DNA from: an uncultured Dehalococcoidales bacterium
GTDB taxonomy: Bacteria > Chloroflexota > Dehalococcoidia > GIF9 > AB-539-J10
DNA length: 29,801 nucleotides
NCBI GenBank assembly: GCA_964592065.1
Contig: CAZQDF010000001.1
Span: forward strand, 1-29,801
Direction: 5' to 3'
The notes beneath the pieces are model-generated. The model ran no database searches, was not told the DNA's origin, and saw only the letters and a list, made by a program, of their open reading frames with translations. A program made the translations under genes and the position numbers. Each line of letters starts with the position of its first letter. Position 1 is the stretch's first letter. Positions 2,761-19,368 of this stretch are shown piece after piece.

Positions 2761-2775
2761 ATCTCACACCCTTTA

Positions 2776-2801
2776 TCATTCTGAGCGTAGCGAAGAATCT
2801 C
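2776..2801 (+). repeat. Short palindromic (REP-like) element in the aspS-tig spacer
   Basis: TCATTCTGAGCGTAGCGAAGAATCTC has the same termini (CATTCTGAG ... CGAAGAATCTC) as the inner module at 6667-6699. Confidence 0.75.
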
Positions 2802-2829
2802 CTCTTTAGTTCCTTCCTATCATAAGGAT

Positions 2830-4644
2830 TCAAAGCTTTGGCTTACTGGGATAACCTTCGCGAAGAATCTCATGCTTCAATTTTAAATTTAGTTCATCAA
2901 GCTGGTTCCTATCAACGTATGAGGGACTGTCGAACATCAAGTCAGCAGCATTTTGGTTTTTGGGGAAGGCAATGACCTCCCTGATACTTTGCTCACCAGC
3001 GAATAGCATTAGCAATCGGTCTAGTCCTATGGCAATGCCACCATGGGGTGGTGCTCCATATTCCAGCGCTTTTAAAAGGCATCCAAAACGGCTTTCCATT
3101 TCCTCTTGGCTATAACCAAGAAGTTCAAATATTTTCTCCTGGAGCTGGCGCTTATGGATTCTGATGCTGCCGCTGCCAAGCTCGCAGCCGTTGCACACAA
3201 TATCATAATGGCGACCATGAACCTTGGCCAGTTCGGTATCAATCAACAGCATATCTTCCTCCCGCGGTGCAGTAAACGGATGATGCATTGACTCCCAGCG
3301 ACCTGCCGTCTCACTCCATTCCAACAGAGGGAAATCAACTATGAAGGTAAAAGCGAGTAGCTTAGCATCGGCTAGGCTAAGCCGGCGTGCCATCTCGCGA
3401 CGCAACTCGTCAAGCGCCCTGTTAGTCACCTCTAGTTTGTCAGCGATGAATAGTAAAAGGTCACCAGACTTTGCCTCGAATCTAGCAGCTATATTTTCCA
3501 GTTGAGCTTGAGTCAAGTATTTGGCAGCTGCTGACTTTACCTTATCTAATGCCACAGATTCTCCTGTAAAAGCTATAGTGGTTAACCCTTTAGCTCCGTT
3601 GGCTTCAGCCAGATTGATTAATCCATCAAGTTGATGGCGGCTATAATGACCACAACCAGGAACGCATATTCCCTTCACTTTGCCACCCTTCTCAATAACA
3701 GAACGGAAAACATCAAAGTTAGTTTGAGCAGCGATATCAGATATATCTTTGAGTTCCAAGCTGAATCTCATATCTGGTTTATCTGTGCCATAGCGCTCTG
3801 TTGCTTCCTTGTAGGAGAGGCGTGGGAAAGGCTTTAATACTCGCATTTCTGGTTTAATAATCTCTACAAGCGAGGTGAAAAGCTCCTCCATAAGTTGTAA
3901 TATGTCCTCTTCTTCTACAAAGCTCATCTCCAGGTCAAGCTGAGTAAATTCAGGTTGGCGATCCGCTCGAAGGTCTTCATCTCTAAAGCAGCGAGCTATC
4001 TGGAAATATTTTTCAAAACCAGCTACCATGAGGATTTGTTTGAGTTGTTGTGGAGATTGAGGGAGAGCATAAAACTTGCCTGGGTTGAGGCGGCTAGGTA
4101 CAAGGTAATCGCGAGCTCCTTCTGGAGTGCTCTTAATCAAAATAGGCGTCTCGATTTCGATAAAGCTTTTGGCATCGAGGAAGGCACGGATAAACTTTAT
4201 CGCCCTGTGGCGTAAGATGATATTATCTCGTACTCTAGGTCTTCTCAGGTACAGATAGCGACTTTTGAGGCAAAGTGATTCTTCAACTTCCACATCCTCA
4301 TTTATGTAAAATGGCGGAGTTTCTGAAGGATTAAGGATGACAGCTTTTTTAACTATGACTTCAATATCTCCGGTAGCCAATTTGGAGTTCTCTGTGCCTT
4401 TAGGACGGGGAACAATTTCTCCAGTAATCTGAATTACATACTCATTGCGGAGTGAACCAGCTATCTGGTAGGTATCTTGGGATATCTGCGGGTTGAAAAC
4501 TATTTGGACTACGCCTTCTGTATCTCGTAGGTCAATAAATACCATGCCGCCGTGGTCACGGCGTCGGTGCACCCAACCAGCTAAAGTTGCCTTCTGGCTA
4601 ACATGTTCTTTTCTCAGTTCACCACAACTATGGGTTTTGAGCAA
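2830..4644 (-). CDS. aspS: Aspartate--tRNA ligase, probably non-discriminating (Asp/Asn)
   Basis: GWVHRRRDHGG, GARDYLVPSR, ALPQSPQ, FRDEDLRADRQPEFTQLD, PPHGGIAIGLDR. His in RDHGG and Gly in RPKGTEN are the recognised ND-type determinants. Confidence 0.96.
   Translation of the reverse strand: MLKTHSCGELRKEHVSQKATLAGWVHRRRDHGGMVFIDLRDTEGVVQIVFNPQISQDTYQIAGSLRNEYVIQITGEIVPRPKGTENSKLATGDIEVIVKKAVILNPSETPPFYINEDVEVEESLCLKSRYLYLRRPRVRDNIILRHRAIKFIRAFLDAKSFIEIETPILIKSTPEGARDYLVPSRLNPGKFYALPQSPQQLKQILMVAGFEKYFQIARCFRDEDLRADRQPEFTQLDLEMSFVEEEDILQLMEELFTSLVEIIKPEMRVLKPFPRLSYKEATERYGTDKPDMRFSLELKDISDIAAQTNFDVFRSVIEKGGKVKGICVPGCGHYSRHQLDGLINLAEANGAKGLTTIAFTGESVALDKVKSAAAKYLTQAQLENIAARFEAKSGDLLLFIADKLEVTNRALDELRREMARRLSLADAKLLAFTFIVDFPLLEWSETAGRWESMHHPFTAPREEDMLLIDTELAKVHGRHYDIVCNGCELGSGSIRIHKRQLQEKIFELLGYSQEEMESRFGCLLKALEYGAPPHGGIAIGLDRLLMLFAGEQSIREVIAFPKNQNAADLMFDSPSYVDRNQLDELNLKLKHEILREGYPSKPKL
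2846..2871 (+). repeat. Repeat right-end fragment inside the aspS 3' end
   Basis: CTGGGATAACCTTCGCGAAGAATCTC resembles 6701-6726 CTCAGGGTAAACTCCGCGAAGCAATC. On the minus strand it encodes EILREGYP of the AspS tail. Confidence 0.55.
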
Positions 4645-5407: not shown

Positions 5408-7255
5408 TCATGGCTGCAGCAGTTCCTGAAGAACAGCTAGTACATCTTGCCGAGGCACGCTGCTGTGAATCACCGCCTTGCCCATATCTTCTAAAAGCAC
5501 CCAACGGATTGCGCCTCCTCTTACCTTTTTATCCAGTTCCATAGCTCTCTCCACATCGGTTAAGTCTATTTTGGAGAAGCTTACAGGTAAATCAAATCTT
5601 TGTAATAGGGATTGTTGCTGTTTAACTCTGGCTGGAGATAAAAGACCTAACCTCTGACTAAGCTTACCTGCCCCCACCATGCCAATAGCTACTGCTTCAC
5701 CATGAAGGAATTGCCTATATTGAGTGGCTGCTTCCAATCCATGGGCAATAGTATGCCCATAGTTCAAAATAATACGTTTCCCCTTCTCCCTCTCATCTTC
5801 ACTAACAACCTGAGCCTTGAAAGCAGCGCTGCGAGCAATAGCCTGAGTGAGCATATCCGGCTCTAATTCCATTAGCTTAGCAGCGTTGATTTTCAAAAAC
5901 TTAAAGAACCCTTCATCTAGTATGAGACCATACTTAATCACTTCAGCCCATCCTGAGGTCAGCTCCCGCTGAGACAAAGTGGTAAGAGTCTGACAGTCAA
6001 CCAAGACAAAGTTAGGCTGATAGAAGGCGCCGATAAGATTTTTCCCCTGAGGGTGGTTAACGCCTACCTTGCCTCCAATGCTGGCATCAACCATAGCTAC
6101 CAAGCTGGTTGGTAGTTGTATCCAGGGCATGCCTCGCAAGAAAGTGGCAGCTACAAAGCCAGCTAAATCACCCACCATGCCACCACCCAAAGCGATGAGG
6201 ATGTCATCTCGCTCCGCTCGGTGTTCTACGAGAAAGTCATAGATTCTGTTAGCGAAGTCAATGTTTTTCGTTGTCTCGCCCGGCGGCACAACAAAGGAGT
6301 TCACTACGAAGCCGGCATGTTCCACTATTTCTCTAACCTTGCGGCCGTAGAGGGAAAATACAATTTCATCGCTAATTACATTGACCGTACCACATAAGCC
6401 CCTCTCTTTTATCTTTTCCCCTAGCTTGTCCAGTAGCCCCCAGCCCACAAAAATAGGATAACTTTGAGTGGTAGTTTTCACCTCGCAGGCAATGTCCTTA
6501 TCAGTATCATTGCAACCCTTCCCTTTGTCATTGCGGTGAGCCGAAGTCCTGAGTGTAGCGAAGGGGGAGCGTGGCAATCTCGGCGTTAAGTATTCCTGCG
6601 ATTGCTTCGGCATTTCATGTCTTGCGATGGCGCCCGAATTGTCATTGCGAGCCCTTCGCCTCTTGCCATTCTGAGGGAGAGAAGCGACCGAAGAATCTCG
6701 CTCAGGGTAAACTCCGCGAAGCAATCCCCAAGCTCTTGCTACCTCCTCAGCTACCTCACTAATGCTTAAGTCATCGGTGTGAACCGTCCAGTCAACATTG
6801 GCATAGTAAGGCTGCCTAGAGGCTTTAAGTTGCTTGATGTGCTCTAGGGGATTGTCCTGAGCTAGAAGAGGGCGAATTTCTGTTTCCGAGCCGTAAGCAG
6901 CATCCTGAAATAAGCGTTGATAGATTGTTTCTGGCTTGGCTTCAAGACAAATGATTAAACCACTTTGGGCAAGCAGTTCATAGTTTTGATTATCAACAAT
7001 AGCACCGCCTCCGATAGCTATGACCGTTTGTTTTTGCTGGCAAGCTTTCTTAATCATGTGCCGCTCCAGCTCCCTGAATTTTGCCTCCCCCTCCTGCTGA
7101 AAAATTTCACTAATTGGCTTGCCAGCTTGTTTAACTATCTCTTCGTCAGTATCAATGAAATCCCAGTTTAACCTCCGGGCTACCTCTCTGCCTACAAAAG
7201 ATTTGCCAGTAGCAGAAAAACCTGCCAGGATGATATTAGCTATTCGTTTGCTCAT
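5408..7255 (-). CDS. aroKB: Fused shikimate kinase / 3-dehydroquinate synthase (AroK-AroB) with a repeat-derived linker
   Basis: N-terminal GFSATGKS P-loop, DTD, GGG and RPLL. C-terminal GGGMVGDLAGF, PTSLVAMVDASIGGK, LNYGHT and HGEAVAIG. Confidence 0.93.
   Translation of the reverse strand: MSKRIANIILAGFSATGKSFVGREVARRLNWDFIDTDEEIVKQAGKPISEIFQQEGEAKFRELERHMIKKACQQKQTVIAIGGGAIVDNQNYELLAQSGLIICLEAKPETIYQRLFQDAAYGSETEIRPLLAQDNPLEHIKQLKASRQPYYANVDWTVHTDDLSISEVAEEVARAWGLLRGVYPERDSSVASLPQNGKRRRARNDNSGAIARHEMPKQSQEYLTPRLPRSPFATLRTSAHRNDKGKGCNDTDKDIACEVKTTTQSYPIFVGWGLLDKLGEKIKERGLCGTVNVISDEIVFSLYGRKVREIVEHAGFVVNSFVVPPGETTKNIDFANRIYDFLVEHRAERDDILIALGGGMVGDLAGFVAATFLRGMPWIQLPTSLVAMVDASIGGKVGVNHPQGKNLIGAFYQPNFVLVDCQTLTTLSQRELTSGWAEVIKYGLILDEGFFKFLKINAAKLMELEPDMLTQAIARSAAFKAQVVSEDEREKGKRIILNYGHTIAHGLEAATQYRQFLHGEAVAIGMVGAGKLSQRLGLLSPARVKQQQSLLQRFDLPVSFSKIDLTDVERAMELDKKVRGGAIRWVLLEDMGKAVIHSSVPRQDVLAVLQELLQP
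6526..6726. repeat. Composite of three nested palindromic elements (+,-,+) in frame in the aroK-aroB linker
   Basis: 6526-6581 TGTCATTGCG...GTGGCAATCTC with inner CCTGAGTGTAGCGAAGG; 6600-6632 minus CGCCATCGCAAGACATGAAATGCCGAAGCAATC; 6640-6726 TGTCATTGCGAG...CGAAGCAATC with inner CATTCTGAG...CGAAGAATCTC. Confidence 0.85.
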
Positions 7256-7276
7256 TGTTCATAAATACCCTCGGTC

Positions 7277-7305
7277 AGTATATTGGAAAAGCCAGACTGG
7301 AGCAA
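7277..7305 (-). promoter_or_regulatory. sigma70-type promoter for aroKB
   Basis: Minus strand TTGCTC-N17-TATACT, 21 nt upstream of the aroKB ATG. Confidence 0.5.
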
Positions 7306-7437
7306 GAGTCGCCAGCTCTAGCCTTGCTTTAAGTGAAAGCCTTTCCAAGACCTACTAAGAATACCTTCAAAAAGAGTATAATAAATCCATCAAAAGGATT
7401 GGATAAGGTAGACTCAAGGCAGGAGGTAAGCTGAGAG

Positions 7438-8187
7438 ATGAAACGATGTTCTGTATTAGCTGCCATCCTTTGCATTCTGGCATTGCTCCTAGTCAGTTGT
7501 ACTGGAGCACCACCATATTCCCCACCCGAGGTAATAAGTGCTCCTAGCACACCCAATGGACCTTCCACTGGAAGTATCACTCAGGTCTCGGCTTACATTA
7601 CAGGAGGGGCAACCTCAAGTTTAAGACATAGCGTTCAGTATCGCTTCAATTGGGGAGACGGAAGCTATTCCGACTGGTCATCGTCAACCAGCGCCTCTCA
7701 TTCTTGGTCGTCCCCTGGCAAGTACATGGTTGAAGCTCAGGCTAGGTCTTCTGTTAACTCCGGCATCCTTTAGAGTTGGTCTAGCAGCAAAAGCGTGACT
7801 ATCAATCCACCCAAGACAATAATCATAAAGTATTCGGTAACCATAACAAATGAAAGAGAGTCATGGCTAGGATGGACTATGAAGGCTGATCCAGGTTATA
7901 CCTACTTAGTGGTGAGTTTAGATATTGAAAACGATGGTTATGATTCATTTACCACGAATCCGCTTCGCTTTTGTGCGATAGTAAACAAAGTGAAATATGA
8001 CGCAGGCTTCTATTATCCACAGAAAGACGAGCTAAAAATGGTGGATTTACTGGACGGGGGGAAAATATCTGGGAAAATAGCACTTGAGATACCTGAAGAT
8101 GTGCTCAGTGCTGGCTACCAACTTGGATACAGGCTGGGGACTTGGGAGCCTTACAATATAAAATGGGTCGAAAATAATCTTAGCTGA
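7438..8187 (+). pseudogene. Lipoprotein (lipobox, PKD-like domain, DUF4352-like domain) interrupted by one in-frame TAG at 7771-7773
   Basis: ORFs 7438..7773 and 7795..8187 share a frame. Read-through gives ...VNSGIL*SWSSSKSVTINPPK, the usual end of a PKD-like strand. Lipobox LLLVS-C, PKD motif YRFNWGDG, DUF4352-like YLVVSLDIEN...GGKISGKIALEIP. SD GGAGGT upstream. Confidence 0.7.
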
Positions 8188-8209
8188 CCTAGGCTAGAGG
8201 AGGCTAGAT

Positions 8210-8392
8210 ATGCATCAAGCTGAGAACAAAGATATTTGGTATAACTGTGAGTTCTGCACGAGAAGATTCAAATCTGGTAAGGAGAGGACTGGCCAAAAGC
8301 TTTGTCGAAACTGTATTGAGCTAAGGAGACTAATACGCACTTGGGTTAAGGACGGAGTGTGGGTTAAGGAGGCGGAAGAGCCACAGCCATAA
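8210..8392 (+). CDS. 60-aa protein with two CxxC motifs (putative zinc finger)
   Basis: Strong SD GAGGAGG; CEFC...CRNC. Confidence 0.6.
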   Translation: MHQAENKDIWYNCEFCTRRFKSGKERTGQKLCRNCIELRRLIRTWVKDGVWVKEAEEPQP

Positions 8393-8434
8393 CAAAGCGA
8401 AGGAGGTACGAACTCTGAATCAAAGAGGGTATAT

Positions 8435-9001
8435 ATGAATCTAACGCATGAACAATTTACCAAAGAGTTACCAAAGTGGTATCACAAGTGGAGGAGAGAT
8501 AATACAAATTACTTTCCCGTAGAGAGACGCCTTACTAAGAAAGCTTACACTTTAGGTTACCTTGAGATAGGTGACTTGGTCGACATTACGCGTGTCCTGG
8601 GCAATCCCTTTAATATAGCTAATAGGGTTCGCAAGGCAAATACTGAAGACGAAATAAAGGAAAACACAGGGGAGGCTATTCAGCATCTTAGCAACCCAGC
8701 GAGGGCTCTTACTGATATGAAAAGCATTAGACAGTGGGGACGAACATACGCAAGTAAAACCTTAAGGTGTATTTGCCCATCTGATTATGGGGCACTGGAT
8801 AGCAAGCTAATTCATGGCATAAATTCAAACTATCTGTCCTCAAGAGACGAAGTGGAGCGATATTGCCAGTTTCTTGATTTCTGCCAACAGATTTGGCAGA
8901 TGGTTTCAGTGCCTGGACCAAGAGAAAATGGAGCGTGGTTTTTGGCTGATATAGAAATTGCACTTTTTCAGTTTGTGTGGGATGGCGGTAAGATTGTATA
9001 A
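8435..9001 (+). CDS. Hypothetical protein, possibly HhH-type DNA glycosylase-like fold
   Basis: 188-aa ORF. Segment ALTDMKSIRQWGRTYASKTL...YGALD resembles HhH-GPD spacing by eye; C-terminal DIEIALF. Confidence 0.45.
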   Translation: MNLTHEQFTKELPKWYHKWRRDNTNYFPVERRLTKKAYTLGYLEIGDLVDITRVLGNPFNIANRVRKANTEDEIKENTGEAIQHLSNPARALTDMKSIRQWGRTYASKTLRCICPSDYGALDSKLIHGINSNYLSSRDEVERYCQFLDFCQQIWQMVSVPGPRENGAWFLADIEIALFQFVWDGGKIV

Positions 9002-9134
9002 GCGTTTCCTGCTGCGTACTTATACAACCTATACACAAGAGAAATAGTCTAACTATAGAACCTTAAGAAAAGAATGCTTAGCAACATAATTATTGATGAT
9101 AAGATCCTAAAATGGTTAATTAAAGCCTAAGAGA

Positions 9135-9347
9135 TTACACTGTTACAGCTACTTCTGCCAACTCTACATCTTCAGGTATAGCGAGCCCGTCTTTCTGCAA
9201 AGACTCCAAATAGCCTTGTATAGCCTCTTTAGCATGCTCCAGAGCTTCTTCCTTCGTTCGCCCTTGGGTAACACACCCAGGCAAAGCTGGCACAATCACT
9301 GTATAGTATCCTTCGTTGTATTCCAGAAACACTTTATAACTTGTCAT
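9135..9347 (-). CDS. hicB: HicB family antitoxin (short form, no obvious C-terminal DNA-binding domain)
   Basis: GYYTVIVPALPGCVTQGRTKEEALEHAKEAIQGYLE. The ATG at 9347 has SD GAGGG; alternative TTG at 9359 overlaps the hicA stop. Confidence 0.92.
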   Translation of the reverse strand: MTSYKVFLEYNEGYYTVIVPALPGCVTQGRTKEEALEHAKEAIQGYLESLQKDGLAIPEDVELAEVAVTV

Positions 9348-9355
9348 CTTAACCC

Positions 9356-9583
9356 TCAAAGTAGCTTCACGAACTCTTCAACACTTAGACCAGCTTGTTC
9401 CAATATGCTCTCAAGGGTCTTAGGCGCTAGAGTTTCCCCAGCATGTATCGGAATGGTCACCCTTCTCCCTGGAAAATTTGGGTGCTTGTAATAAAAGTGA
9501 GATCCCTTTGAGTGATGAAGATACCAGCCCGCTCTTAATAATGCTCGCTCTACCTCCTTCCCTGTGATCCTTGGTAGTTTCAC
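9356..9583 (-). CDS. hicA: HicA family mRNA interferase toxin
   Basis: KGSH motif, VTIPIH, TLESILEQAGLS; 75 aa, directly upstream of hicB. Confidence 0.92.
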   Translation of the reverse strand: MKLPRITGKEVERALLRAGWYLHHSKGSHFYYKHPNFPGRRVTIPIHAGETLAPKTLESILEQAGLSVEEFVKLL

Positions 9584-9596
9584 TCCCTAGTTTACT

Positions 9597-10826
9597 CTAA
9601 TCCTTACATATTGACAATTGATAATTATGATAGTTTGCTGAGGTCTCCTTTAGATTATCGCCAGCGAATTTCTCTAACATGGCATCGGCTAAGACAATAG
9701 CTAACATTGCCTCGCCAATCACCCCAGCAGCGGGGACAACGCAAACATCGCTGCGCTCATAATGGGCTTGGGCTGCTTCGCCACTACGCAAATCTATGGA
9801 GGGCAAGGGCTTAGCTAGAGTAGCAATAGGTTTGACCGCGGCCCTGATTACAATGGGTTCTCCATTGCTTATGCCGCCCTCGATGCCGCCAGCGCGGTTA
9901 GTGGCGTGGCGCCAGGGGAAAGGTTGCTTTGAGGGATTGGGGCCAATAATATCCTGGGCTTGTGAACCTTTGAGCTTGGCCAAACTAAATCCATCACCTA
10001 CTTCTACTCCTTTAATAGCGTTGATGCTCATTATTGCCTGAGCAATTCTGCCGTCGAGGCGGTCATCCCAGCTAACATGGCTGCCCAAACCTATAGGCAC
10101 TCCATTGGCGATTACCTCAAAGATGCCACCTAGTGTATCTCCACTAGCTTTAGCTTCATCAATAGCTGTTATCATCTCCTTTCCCATCCCGGCATCAGCA
10201 CAGCGAACTGGAGAAGCTTCTACCTGCTGCCAATTTAGAGAGATTGCTTCGCGGAGACTGTCCTGAGTGGGATTCTTCAGCCGATTCTCTCCCTCAGAAG
10301 GATAAGAGGCGAAGGACTGGCAGCTAACAGGCCCGATTGATATAGTATGGCTGTGAATAGCAATGCCAAACTCCTTAAGAAATCTCTTGGCTACAGCTCC
10401 AGCGGCTACCCTGGCTGCTGTTTCCCTGGCGCTGGCTCTTTCTATTATCGGTCTAATGTCTTTGAGTCCATATTTAGTTACACCAGCTAGGTCGGCGTGT
10501 CCCGGGCGTGGACGAGTTATGGGTTCAGTTTCCTTCTCTAGCAAGGTGACACTCATCTCCTCCAGCCAGTTTTGCCAGTCCCGGTTGGGGATAAAGAGAG
10601 CAATAGGGCTGCCTATAGTAAGTCCATAGCGGACTCCGGAAACGATTTCAGCTTTGTCTTGTTCTATCTTCATGCGAGAGCCGCGGCCATAGCCTCCCTG
10701 GCGACGCTTTAACTCTCTATTGATGTGTTCCGCTTCCAAGGGGAGGCCAGCTACCATCCCTTCGGCTACGGCTATTAACCCCTTCCCGTGGGATTCTCCG
10801 GCGGTTAAAAAGCGAAAATGTCCCAT
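9597..10826 (-). CDS. aroC: Chorismate synthase with an internal repeat-derived insertion
   Basis: TAGESHG, RRQGGYGRG, PRPGHAD, ERASARETAAR, NRAGGIEGGISNG, RSDVCVVPAA. Confidence 0.97.
   Translation of the reverse strand: MGHFRFLTAGESHGKGLIAVAEGMVAGLPLEAEHINRELKRRQGGYGRGSRMKIEQDKAEIVSGVRYGLTIGSPIALFIPNRDWQNWLEEMSVTLLEKETEPITRPRPGHADLAGVTKYGLKDIRPIIERASARETAARVAAGAVAKRFLKEFGIAIHSHTISIGPVSCQSFASYPSEGENRLKNPTQDSLREAISLNWQQVEASPVRCADAGMGKEMITAIDEAKASGDTLGGIFEVIANGVPIGLGSHVSWDDRLDGRIAQAIMSINAIKGVEVGDGFSLAKLKGSQAQDIIGPNPSKQPFPWRHATNRAGGIEGGISNGEPIVIRAAVKPIATLAKPLPSIDLRSGEAAQAHYERSDVCVVPAAGVIGEAMLAIVLADAMLEKFAGDNLKETSANYHNYQLSICKD
10242..10315 (-). repeat. Palindromic element in frame inside aroC
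   Basis: The minus strand matches 6653-6726 (plus strand) ungapped at 62/74 nt by hand count. It encodes roughly SFASYPSEGENRLKNPTQDSLREAI. Confidence 0.9.
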
Positions 10827-13139: not shown

Positions 13140-16139
13140 TTAATCCTCTTCCGTTGAAGTGGAGGAGATTTGCTTTGCAATGACACTTTTAACTGAGATT
13201 AAGGCCTCATTAAGCTTAGCGATATCTTTGCCGCCTGCCTGAGCCATGGTTGCCTTGCCGCCGCCGCCACCGCCAGTGACTTTTGCTACCTCTCTGATAA
13301 TGTCGCCGGCATGAAATCCTTTGGCTGCTAAGTCAGGGGTTACCATGGCCACGAAGTTGGGCTTGTTATCGTAAACTGTAGCCAAAACTACTATAGCGCT
13401 CTTTAACTTGTCCCGCAATATATCGCCCATTTCTCTAAGGATAAGTATAGTTAGTGGCGGCACCTTAGCTGCTAAGACTGTTACACCATCCACCTTCTCA
13501 ACTTGCTCGAGTAAGGATTCTGCTACTTTCCTCGATAGCTCCCTTTCCAAGCAAAGCGTGCGTCTGTGCTCTGTTTCCAGTTCACTAAGCAAGGTTTTTA
13601 CCTTGTCATGGGTTTCCTCGAGTGGACTCTCTACCTCCTTAGCTATATTTTGTAAGGCTGAGAGACGTTCTTCAACCAAAGATTCCGCAGCTCGTCCGGT
13701 CACCGCTTGAATGCGGCGTAATCCGGTACCAATACTGCTTTCATTGGTTATAAAGAAGAGGCCAATTTCACCTGTTGACTTGACATGGGTGCCTCCACAA
13801 AGCTCCTTGCTTATCGGAGGCTCGCCAATTTCGATTACCCGAACCATTTCTCCATATTTCTCTTCAAAAAAGGCGAGAGCACCTTCAGCAATAGCTTGCC
13901 CATAAGGGATGTCTTTTTTTGCTTTCACTGGCAAGTTTTGTCGCACCTTTTCATTAACCCGTCTCTGAACCTCCATGAGCTGCTCTTCGGTTATGGCTGC
14001 TAAGTGTGAAAAATCAAATCTGAGCCTTTCTGGCTCTACCAACGAACCTCTCTGTTGAACACGACTACCCAATACTTGTCTCAAAGCAAGCTGAAGGAGA
14101 TGGGTAGCGGTGTGGTTGCGGGCGATGTCGAGACGGCGAGCAGCATCAATTTTCGCCTCTACTTCATCGCCAACGGATATACGGCCATTAACAACTTGAC
14201 CCAAATGAACAATGGCTCCAGCAGCAAGGTTGCCAAACGGCGACCAAACAGTTCTAGCAATATCAGCCCAGCCAGAATGACAAGTTATCCTACCGAGATC
14301 ACCCACCTGTCCTCCCATCTCAGCATAAAATGGCGTCTTATCCAGCACAATGGCAACCAATTTCCCTTCTTCTACCAGAGACACCGCAATACCTGAGTCT
14401 TGATCTAACAAGTAGCTAATTTTAGAGCGGCTCTCTAAGCTATCATAACCAGTAAACTCAGTCGGCTCAGGTATGTATTCAACTCTAGCTCCCTCATGCC
14501 CAGTGGCTCTGTCTGAGGCAGTAACAAACCTATGTCCTGCCCTCGCCCTTTCTCGCTGTTTTTCCATCTCAGCCTGGAAACTCTCCCAATCTATGGATAA
14601 ATCTCGTTCCCTAGCGATCTCAGCAGTTAGTTCTTGAAGAAAGCCATAAGTATCATGAAGTATAAACACCTCAAAGCCTGTCAACTCATTAGCAACTGAA
14701 TCAAGATCATCTTCTAGCCTTTCTAAGCCTTCCCTCAGGCTTCGCTTAAGAGCGTCAAAGGCATCGGGGAGCTTAAATGGATCGTATCCAGACACAATTC
14801 CCTTTAGATCTGTCAAATCTTTCTCCACTGGTTGTAGGCTTTCCACAACAGCATCTCTATATCCTATACCTAGTACATGCTTCCATGCCTTACAATCTCG
14901 AAGAAAGTGATCTATGGCAGCATCGAGCTTGTGCGTAAGATCAATAATATCTTTTTGGGATATTGCTTTTTCAAATGCCTTCTTGAAAATAGGGAGGTAA
15001 CCTACCAATTCCTCTCGCATCCTAAAAAGGGTTTGTTCCAAGATACCCATCCCAATTGGGAGTGTTTGCTGGAATTTCTCCTCCTCGACTTCGACTACCT
15101 GTCTAATCAAGTCTCTATTGGCTGTTAGCTCAGGGTATATGTCGCTCATTTGGGAGATAACCACCTCAGTAATTTGGCTGAGGAAAGGCTTATCCAAGCC
15201 CAGCCTTTTCCCATAAACCGAGGCACGCTTGAGTATTCGCTGCAGAACATAGCCCCTTCCTTCGTTGGAAGGCATAACACCATCGGCAATAAGGAAGACA
15301 ATGCCGCGCCCATGCTCAGCGATAATTCTGATGGCCCGATCGGTATTTTCATCCTCGCCGTAATTTCTATTGACTAGCTGACAAATCTGTTTTACTAAGG
15401 GCGAGAAAAGCTCTGTTTCATAAGGGGAGGGTTTGCCTTGAGTAGCTGCGGCAGTCCTCTCCAGTCCCATCCCGGTATCAATATTCGGTTTGGGTAAAGG
15501 AGTGCGTTGCCCGTTGCTATCTTGATTATATTGAGTAAATACCAGGTTCCATATTTCAGAGAAGCGACCACACTCGCAATTAGGTTTACATTCAGGCCTA
15601 CCGCAGCCAAATTCCTCGCCCAAGTCATAATGGATTTCACTGCAAGGACCACAGGGGCCTGAATCGCCAACCGGACCCCAGAAGTTATCCTCCTCACCAA
15701 ATCTCAATATCTTTTGAGAGGGAACACCCACTTCCTGCCAATAAGTGAAGGCCTCGTCGTCATCAAGGTAGATAGTTATCCAGAGCCGCTCCTTGGGCAG
15801 CTTCAGATACTTAGTAACGAATTCCCAGGCCCAAGAAATAGCTTCCTTCTTAAAGTAATCACCCACGCTGAAGTTTCCCAGCATCTCAAAAAAGGTAAGG
15901 TGCTTGCTATCACCAACTGAATCTATATCAGTAGCGCGAAAGCATTTCTGGCAGGAGGCCAACCTTGGGCTGGGGGGCGCTTCCAACCCCAAGAAATAAG
16001 GCTTAATCTGTACCATGCCGGCACTGGTTAATAACAAAGTGGGGTCTTTATAGGGAATCAAAGATGAGCTAGGGAGAACTTTATGTCCTCTGTCCTGGAA
16101 AAACTCCAGAAAGGCCTGTCTAATTTCGTCACCAGTCAC
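13140..16139 (-). CDS. alaS: Alanine--tRNA ligase with a ~100-aa internal insertion
   Basis: DPTLLLTSAGM, TFFEMLGNFS, IDTGMGLER, editing NHTATH and ELCGGTH, C-terminal GGGGG...AQAGG; 999 aa. Confidence 0.97.
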   Translation of the reverse strand: MTGDEIRQAFLEFFQDRGHKVLPSSSLIPYKDPTLLLTSAGMVQIKPYFLGLEAPPSPRLASCQKCFRATDIDSVGDSKHLTFFEMLGNFSVGDYFKKEAISWAWEFVTKYLKLPKERLWITIYLDDDEAFTYWQEVGVPSQKILRFGEEDNFWGPVGDSGPCGPCSEIHYDLGEEFGCGRPECKPNCECGRFSEIWNLVFTQYNQDSNGQRTPLPKPNIDTGMGLERTAAATQGKPSPYETELFSPLVKQICQLVNRNYGEDENTDRAIRIIAEHGRGIVFLIADGVMPSNEGRGYVLQRILKRASVYGKRLGLDKPFLSQITEVVISQMSDIYPELTANRDLIRQVVEVEEEKFQQTLPIGMGILEQTLFRMREELVGYLPIFKKAFEKAISQKDIIDLTHKLDAAIDHFLRDCKAWKHVLGIGYRDAVVESLQPVEKDLTDLKGIVSGYDPFKLPDAFDALKRSLREGLERLEDDLDSVANELTGFEVFILHDTYGFLQELTAEIARERDLSIDWESFQAEMEKQRERARAGHRFVTASDRATGHEGARVEYIPEPTEFTGYDSLESRSKISYLLDQDSGIAVSLVEEGKLVAIVLDKTPFYAEMGGQVGDLGRITCHSGWADIARTVWSPFGNLAAGAIVHLGQVVNGRISVGDEVEAKIDAARRLDIARNHTATHLLQLALRQVLGSRVQQRGSLVEPERLRFDFSHLAAITEEQLMEVQRRVNEKVRQNLPVKAKKDIPYGQAIAEGALAFFEEKYGEMVRVIEIGEPPISKELCGGTHVKSTGEIGLFFITNESSIGTGLRRIQAVTGRAAESLVEERLSALQNIAKEVESPLEETHDKVKTLLSELETEHRRTLCLERELSRKVAESLLEQVEKVDGVTVLAAKVPPLTILILREMGDILRDKLKSAIVVLATVYDNKPNFVAMVTPDLAAKGFHAGDIIREVAKVTGGGGGGKATMAQAGGKDIAKLNEALISVKSVIAKQISSTSTEED

Positions 16140-19321: not shown

Positions 19322-19368
19322 AAAGCGAAGGGGAGTTTCCCCGTAAGGGGTGGCTCCCCTTCGCTTTT
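19322..19368 (+). terminator. Intrinsic (probably bidirectional) terminator
   Basis: Perfect 14-bp stem AAAGCGAAGGGGAG/CTCCCCTTCGCTTT, inner CCCC-GTAA-GGGG hairpin, followed by T run. Confidence 0.8.

Follow-up and report, generated by a model that had tools for sequence, protein, structure and literature searches.

An in-frame cluster of nested, probably REP-type palindromes in the linker of an AroK-AroB fusion protein from a Dehalococcoidales bacterium

How does a fused two-enzyme protein come to carry, between its domains, a block of alternating inverted repeats that is read through in frame? The question is raised by an aroK-aroB fusion gene in a 29,801-nt stretch of DNA from an uncultured Dehalococcoidales bacterium (contig CAZQDF010000001.1, positions 1 to 29,801, forward strand), the whole of which is referred to below as the window. 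The open reading frame (ORF) at 5408-7255 on the minus strand codes for 615 amino acids, with the Pfam shikimate kinase domain SKI at residues 15-174 and the 3-dehydroquinate synthase domain starting at about residue 268; its nearest homologues carry Dehalococcoidia source names. The 201-bp repeat block at 6526-6726 codes for residues 177-244, and hence for the bulk of the inter-domain linker. It is probable, in our judgement, that this block is a cluster of short, non-autonomous, selfish palindromes of the repetitive extragenic palindrome (REP) type, accumulated in frame in the flexible linker of AroKB, and its architecture, i.e., tag, stem starting with AT, tail and inverted-dimer habit, fits an assignment to the superfamily of CGTC-tagged REPs. 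The units are nested within one another, the block differs from that of the closest relative by an indel of the size of a dimer, copies are dispersed in many genes as well as in intergenic DNA, and the reading frames used within genes are strongly biased.

Described on the plus strand, which is antisense to aroKB, the basic unit reads (C/T)GTC + ATTGC + GAG + loop + CGA(A) + GCAAT + C(CA/TC). Three such elements, alternating in orientation as +,-,+, were located in the block, as the original prediction had described them. The first element, E1 (6526-6581, plus), carries a TGTC tag and the arms ATTGC/GCAAT and reads TGTC-ATTGC-Ggt ... G-GCAAT-CTC, with GTCATTGCGgt as the left arm and GGCAATCTC as the right arm. 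Its loop holds ~27-30 nt of extra DNA with an inner unit, GTCCTGAG-TGTAG-CGAAGGGG (6546-6566, plus), whose arms are of the CCCT/AGGG type; on the coding strand E1 translates to ..LPRSPFATLRTSAHRND. The tails of E1 and E2 face each other across a 16-nt spacer (6582-6597). E2 (~6598-6633, minus) is a decayed simple unit with the reverse complement GCCATCGCAAGACATGAAATGCCGAAGCAATCGC, which can be split into the parts GCCATCGCAAG-ACATGAAATGC-CGAAGCAATCGC, and it contributes the peptide AIARHEMPKQS. After a further spacer of 6 nt, with the tags of E2 and E3 facing, follows E3 (6640-6729, plus), whose arms TGTCATTGCGAG ... CGAAGCAATCCCC match the arm consensus exactly (TGTC-ATTGC-GAG ... CGAA-GCAAT-CCCC) and whose 4-nt loop is replaced by a 64-nt module; it encodes GLLRGVYPERDSSVASLPQNGKRRRARND. 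Within this module lies an inner unit, CCATTCTGAGGGAGAGAAGCGACCGAAGAATCTC (6666-6699, plus), with the different but complementary, covarying arms CCATTCTGAG...GAAGAATCTC (CC-ATTCT-GAG...CGA-AGAAT-CTC), i.e., ATTCT/AGAAT. In a relative, L245, each of the three units has a simple form while their order and orientation are unchanged, with a similar spacer between E1 and E2, so that the earlier description of two elements as carrying a second module is correct; there the simple form of E1 is TGTCATTGCGAGCGGAGCGTGGCAATC, and the canonical counterpart of E2, GTCATTGCGAGGCATGAAATGCCGAAGCAATCTC, agrees with the window copy at ~28 of 34 positions, as compared by eye.

The whole block is free of stop codons in the aroKB coding frame, as had been claimed, and in that frame alone, the remaining frames being closed. 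Predicted tryptic peptides by which the translated block could be recognized are DSSVASLPQNGK, HEMPK, QSQEYLTPR and SPFATLR. A scan of the window for arm pairs returned 6 overlapping matches at four loci (2776-2799, 2776-2869, the E3 composite and a composite in aroC), compared with ~0.1 in shuffled sequence.

The alignment of AroKB linkers that had been suggested as a check was carried out on linker DNA from five relatives and as a census of linker length, taken as the stretch between two conserved anchors, in 100 relatives. The linkers range from 21 to 95 amino acids (median 35), and with 84 amino acids that of the window is the third longest. Most linkers of 21-28 amino acids contain the bare unit alone, the E3 motif occurs in 10 of the 100 relatives, the PLPSRERK motif of an alternative module in 30, and the dimer in ~10, while tandem repeats of the REKARND type are found in the linkers of some. 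The short class is exemplified by L244, with one canonical 32-nt unit, GTCATTGCGAGGAGCGTAGCGACGAAGCAATCC, translated as GLLRRYAPRND in a 21-aa linker; the DNA of this unit is identical to copies in unrelated phyla. At orthologous positions some copies keep the native loop of 4-12 nt, and in others one of several different palindromic modules fills it, e.g., in L246, where the same outer arms as in the window enclose a different palindromic module (peptide HPPHLNPLPSRERKLGSQLK). The basal unit at the linker site is old in the clade, and later events took place in its loop or beside it.

The closest relative, L001, shares 91.7% nucleotide identity with the window and has E3 only. It lacks exactly 114 bp (38 codons), corresponding to E1 plus E2, and this indel is bounded by the 11-nt direct repeat TTGTCATTGCG (6525-6535 and 6639-6649, plus), which is the tag and left arm common to E1 and E3. 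In L002 the left arm of E1 is joined to the E3 module, followed by a right arm of the E3 type; what looks like a remnant of E1 is retained, and this state could equally be a 105-bp deletion or a different composite. L245 has its three simple units in +,-,+ order, including the recurrent E1-spacer-E2 dimer. Long linkers with conserved amino acids but without repeat DNA, which would have spoken against an origin from repeats, were not seen in the relatives compared. The idea of repeated insertion at a tolerant inter-domain site is supported by this graded series, with three amendments: insertion is not the sole process that shaped the linker, deletion probably contributing as well; the basal unit there is old; and the linker is not special, as these elements are also present in aroC loops, in the C-terminal region of AroB and in many other enzymes. 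Near the AroB C-terminus lies a second hot spot, at which several relatives have E3 the other way round.

Within the window, a second, inverted copy of E3 was found at 10242-10322 (83% identity over 81 nt, local BLAST E = 1e-9), as part of a composite at 10240-10328 (minus strand) that is in frame in the chorismate synthase ORF aroC (9597-10826, minus strand) and encodes SCQSFASYPSEGENRLKNPTQDSLREAIS. With respect to its host gene, its orientation is opposite to that of E3 in aroKB. The aroC gene of L002 carries at the same position only the canonical 26-mer TAGTTGCGAGCAAAGCGAAGCAATC (TAGTTGCGAG-CAAA-GCGAAGCAATC; protein ASCEQSEAIS), whereas in the window and in three metagenome contigs (L183, L193, L227) 64 nt stand in place of the 4-nt centre, which lengthens the gene by 60 nt and the protein by 20 amino acids. 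The inserted stretch aligns with gaps in the chorismate synthase of Aquifex (1Q1L), which marks the region as variable in length. Another composite of the same superfamily lies at 2775-2875 (plus), with the unit TCATTCTGAGCGTAGCGAAGAATC at 2776-2799 and, near 2859-2869, another right arm. The gene aspS (ORF 2830-4644, minus strand) ends within this composite, stop codon included, such that the last ~14 residues of aspartyl-tRNA synthetase (..HEILREGYPSKPKL*) together with the stop codon appear to be derived from the repeat. The repeat arrangement at the end of aspS is kept in L001 and L002.

In a pan-bacterial scan of one genome per species with the pattern GTCATTGCGAG-N5-35-CGAAGCAATC, the unit occurred at at least 120 loci; the matches listed include Alpha-, Gamma- and Deltaproteobacteria, Chloroflexota, Patescibacteria, Bacteroidota, Cyanobacteria, Planctomycetota, Zixibacteria, Bacillota (Sporomusa) and Helicobacter. 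Its flanks are constant and its centre is variable, often self-complementary and commonly a mini-hairpin of the GCGAAGC type. For the 173 copies at the 120 listed loci, all in other genomes, C or T precedes GTC in 95% (C 110, T 55), which defines a CGTC/TGTC tag. The 3' tail is CCA in 84 (49%) and CTC in 43 (25%) of these copies; the corresponding tails in the window are CCC (E3), CTC (E1) and CGC (E2). In 31 of 37 neighbouring pairs the tails face each other, forming inverted dimers. Among loci from 720 kb of metagenome sequence, several covarying arm types were distinguished, namely ATTCT/AGAAT (197 copies, a number inflated by the search pattern), ATTGC/GCAAT (52), ACCCT/AGGGT (13), ACTCT/AGAGT (10) and rarer ones. 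Nesting reaches two to three levels, and some copies hold an E3 module within a CCCT-type unit within an outer ATTGC unit. A Chloroflexus locus (L010, 1372-1869) has four copies of the unit in the same orientation with a covarying CCGCC-N3-GGCGG centre, three of them ~50 nt apart within a stop-free stretch of 185 amino acids, a tandem arrangement unlike the usual inverted dimers.

A scan of metagenomes for the inner unit of E3 gave at least 120 loci, and 38 of 125 copies among the matches listed are well inside long stop-free segments. Pfam domains on both sides of the insert identified as hosts CobU, DapF, SecA (in the wing/scaffold domain), MnmA, a formyltransferase, a TIM-barrel protein of the AP_endonuc_2 family and a PyrK-like protein, in addition to AroC and AroKB. 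In CarA the insert is located between the CPSase and GATase domains in ~11 orthologous contigs. Canonical units were also seen between carA and carB in a planctomycete (L082, 3228-3271) and a deltaproteobacterium (L083, 5951-5976), unlike the composite in Dehalococcoidia-type contigs, which is inside carA itself. A stricter recount, restricted to segments of at least 150 amino acids, retained 35 intragenic copies, of which 28 are read as ..HSEGEKRPKNLAQDKLREA.., 6 in the opposite orientation as ..PERDSSVASLPQNDKRRRARND.. and 1 in a third frame. Single units are open in 4-5 of the 6 frames; hydrophilic frames were used in 34 of the 35 copies and the hydrophobic open frame in none. Copies also occur in intergenic DNA, and both orientations relative to host genes are found.

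The known system that comes closest is the group of CGTC-tagged REPs (Di Nocera, De Gregorio and Rocco, BMC Genomics 14:522, 2013; PMC3733652), with the families CGTC-1 to CGTC-4, which include dRS3 of Neisseria and RPE-4 and RPE-6 of Rickettsia conorii. They are defined by a CGTC tag (often TGTC or CCTC) and a stem of 8-9 bp starting with A-T, T-A, have a loop of 4-5 nt (variable in Bradyrhizobium CGTC-1), mostly a CCA tail and mostly the form of inverted dimers, and lack a dedicated transposase; intragenic copies, and clusters of up to 43-82 amino acids, have been reported (PMC3733652). In the window an unpaired TGTC tag is found in E1 (6526-6529) and E3 (6640-6643), that of E2 being decayed, and the arms of all three elements start with AT. 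Inverted dimers are represented by the facing tails of E1 and E2, also in L245 and in ~10 relatives, and dispersed copies without a linked transposase, with occasional in-frame copies and clusters in genes, are further points in common. Peptides run parallel as well: DSRFRGND, CHSRESGDP and VIPAKAGI in R. conorii (PMC3733652) may be compared with LLRRYAPRND, CHCE.. and VIAR.. here. On the other hand, the stem consists of 5 Watson-Crick pairs (ATTGC/GCAAT) followed by a mismatched region, a conserved GAG/CGAA internal loop, instead of a perfect 8-9 bp stem, and while the basal 26-mer has a 4-nt loop, those of E1 (~40 nt) and E3 (64 nt) are far longer. The host here belongs to the Dehalococcoidia (Chloroflexota), with many core metabolic and translation genes invaded, whereas Chloroflexi are not among the five phyla given for CGTC repeats (PMC3733652).

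Rickettsia palindromic elements (RPEs; Ogata et al., Science 290:347, 2000, and Genome Res 12:808, 2002, as cited in PMC10969869 and PMC3733652) are palindromes found in intergenic DNA and in frame in unrelated housekeeping genes at positions judged compatible with the protein fold, with RPE-1 being ~100-150 bp long and specific to Rickettsia. In-frame insertion at fold-compatible positions is shared by the AroKB linker, the variable region of AroC, the inter-domain region of CarA and others. The composites described here are ~86-90 nt long, are built from units of 26-34 nt found across phyla and are prominently nested, and their host lineage consists of free-living anaerobes, in contrast to the obligately intracellular Rickettsia. 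Membership in the Rickettsia families themselves is not indicated, because the ATTGC/GCAAT arms and the peptides differ from those of R. conorii CGTC-1 and CGTC-4, only the architecture being common. Bacterial interspersed mosaic elements (BIMEs) of enterobacteria and Neisseria intergenic mosaic elements (NIMEs) are extragenic mosaics of REP or dRS3 units in alternating orientation with conserved spacers. Alternating units and recurrent spacers, such as that of the E1-spacer-E2 dimer in L245, are found here too; in BIMEs and NIMEs, however, the units stand side by side outside genes, while here they sit in the loops of other units and the array is part of an ORF that is probably translated through. 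The 114-bp E1 plus E2 indel resembles, as an apparent mobile unit, the inverted doublets of short hairpins known as REPINs, which are mobilised by a REP-associated tyrosine transposase (RAYT, of the Y1 type), but the tag is TGTC/CGTC instead of GTAG and no RAYT gene was seen in the ~0.9 Mb of flanks examined. Miniature inverted-repeat transposable elements, with terminal inverted repeats of ~15-30 bp and a target-site duplication, differ in that the arms here are 5 bp and no duplication was seen at two comparisons of filled and unfilled sites; the 11-nt repeat around E1 and E2 is not a duplicated target, as it is the shared left arm. A literature search with the DNA strings gave unrelated primer matches only, the searchable literature held no paper linking Dehalococcoidia with REPs, and a search for host proteins with concatenated peptides returned only short hypothetical ORFs of Chloroflexi and Dehalococcoidales. 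In-frame clusters of REPs or RPEs as such are already known, and what appears to be new is the lineage, the loop-in-loop composites and the breadth of housekeeping genes.

Could the block be a structured RNA or DNA signal, i.e., an mRNA stabiliser or RNase site, a translation pause between the domains, an antisense small RNA or a site bound by a chromosomal protein, these being roles that have each been proposed for REPs? The arms covary between subfamilies, and in an alignment of 35 copies 86.7% of the cells in the proposed stems are paired, as compared with ~40% for slid partners. REPs in other bacteria have been reported to act as RNA elements (PMC3733652). Such a role is nevertheless improbable for this block, since covariation within the same E3 alignment did not rise above shuffles (in part because the inner helix was fixed by the search pattern and the register of one helix differs among subfamilies), host genes carry copies in both orientations and others lie between genes, and Rfam yielded nothing relevant, neither at the gathering threshold for the window and 10 unit-rich loci nor in a permissive scan of a four-copy array. 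The original prediction had held that neighbouring elements can pair; complementary segments do exist, being the arms of inverted units, but the folding energy of each unit, of the aroC copy and of the whole block, computed on both strands as had been proposed, was no better than that of shuffles (z-scores from -0.55 to +1.9). The further suggestion that G-T wobbles favour the non-coding strand did not hold in the wider family, where G-T (42) and A-C (30) cells of the informative helix reveal no bias. Least likely of all, and very improbable, is that a low-complexity linker expanded by local slippage without any mobile DNA, or that the block is an assembly artefact. The 11-nt direct repeat bounding the 114-bp indel and the tandem REKARND-type repeats of some relatives agree with slippage, but these sequences are not confined to the linker; they recur in aroC, at a distance of 3.5 kb, and in many unrelated genes, as well as between genes and in other phyla, and the arrangement is found again in independent assemblies (ENA, NCBI, Logan, JGI).

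Another reading is a selfish arrival followed by exaptation, in which the charged, disordered peptide would now be under selection for the spacing or independence of the domains, for solubility or for the binding of a partner; we hold this to be unlikely, albeit less so than a signal in RNA or DNA. E3 is conserved at least as well as the enzyme domains among the window, L001 and L002, its identity over 77 positions being 97.4% as against 91.7% for the domains in L001 and 92.2% as against 88.1% in L002. The extra conservation was considered as a sign of constraint and rejected, as it is within local variation and comprises 77 positions only. The almost exclusive use of hydrophilic frames and the retention of the basal unit at the site in most of the 100 relatives also agree with a selected linker. 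However, even close relatives differ enormously in the length of the linker (21-95 amino acids) and in the modules it contains, some have almost no element, and unrelated enzymes share these peptides in either orientation, which fits tolerance rather than a specific function.

For selfish palindromes accumulated in frame, it can be envisaged that a trans-acting enzyme recognizing the hairpin spreads the copies, possibly a single-strand transposase of the HUH/Y1 type like RAYT or a recombinase like that of IS110, with the exposed loop of a resident copy as the preferred target. Identical arms may also allow arrays to gain or lose units, through slippage or recombination. Of the copies in essential genes, selection would retain only those that add a whole number of codons, are free of stops and are read in a hydrophilic frame, within linkers or surface loops, and the additional ~67 amino acids in AroKB would be translated as a disordered tether without a required function. 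To our knowledge, no transposase is known for CGTC-type REPs.

Several points weigh against this interpretation. No mobilising enzyme was found in the window and flanks examined: no transposase domain is present in window ORFs of at least 110 amino acids, and no gene family is shared within 400 nt of the 173 copies (552 ORFs clustered, 120 loci) apart from repeat-derived pseudo-ORFs. Neither a target-site duplication nor a transposition scar was seen at the two filled/unfilled comparisons, which fits REP or IS200-like chemistry and gene conversion equally well, and gene conversion or template switching could give the same filled and unfilled patterns. As for the 114-bp difference, insertion and deletion are indistinguishable, and the state of L001 could equally have arisen by a deletion with its ends in the 11-nt left arm that E1 and E3 have in common. 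That E3 is no more diverged than the flanking domains is slightly unexpected for a neutral tether, and the loci from the metagenome scan are on contigs without taxonomic assignment. An AlphaFold model of AroKB gives residues ~191-250 a predicted local distance difference test (pLDDT) score of 24-27 without secondary structure, as compared with 70-87 for most of the kinase domain, but this is weak evidence of disorder as the whole model is poor (mean pLDDT 60, alignment of 26 rows).

A bolder view, which we advance only tentatively, is that active, pan-bacterial hairpin elements, targeting loops and served by an enzyme so far unlinked to them, have rebuilt linkers and loops in dozens of essential enzymes of the Dehalococcoidia, with some inserts recruited as tethers. 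The element is of use in annotation, as it accounts for many odd, charged "insertions" and small spurious ORFs in metagenome-assembled genomes of Dehalococcoidia and other uncultured lineages, typical repeat-derived peptides being ..RFARND.., VIARSEATKQS and HSEGEKRPKNL. The picture drawn from Rickettsia, of selfish DNA turned into part of a protein, is thereby extended to a free-living, environmentally abundant lineage. Furthermore, sites that are unfilled, filled or doubly filled form a graded series from which the movement of tag-bearing REPs could well be worked out, and the linkers of different length represent natural experiments on the amount of extra disordered sequence that can be accommodated between two fused enzymes.

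Some further features of the window may be recorded. The distance between aroKB and aroC is ~2.3 kb in the window (7256-9596) as compared with 190 nt in L002. This interval contains a PKD-domain lipoprotein ORF (7438-7773) and a DUF4352 ORF (7795-8187) in the same frame, with a single TAG between them (7774-7776), which may be one gene with an in-frame stop (7438-8187), i.e., a pseudogene, a sequencing error or a case of read-through. It also holds a cysteine-rich ORF of 60 amino acids, an ORF of 188 amino acids without a Pfam match and a small gene pair (9135-9583), consisting of a HicB-like antitoxin identified by Pfam (9135-9359) and a candidate HicA-like ORF of 75 amino acids; a HicB-like gene is located upstream of aroKB in L245, too. 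Alanyl-tRNA synthetase (13140-16139, minus strand) has 999 amino acids in the window and 885 in L002, the difference being one insertion of ~105-114 amino acids at residues ~371-485, which looks helical, is without repeat arms and splits the Pfam tRNA-synt_2c match. What resembles an intrinsic terminator lies at 19322-19367, where two 21-nt arms, 86% complementary, enclose a loop of 4 nt as an inverted repeat and TTTTG follows.

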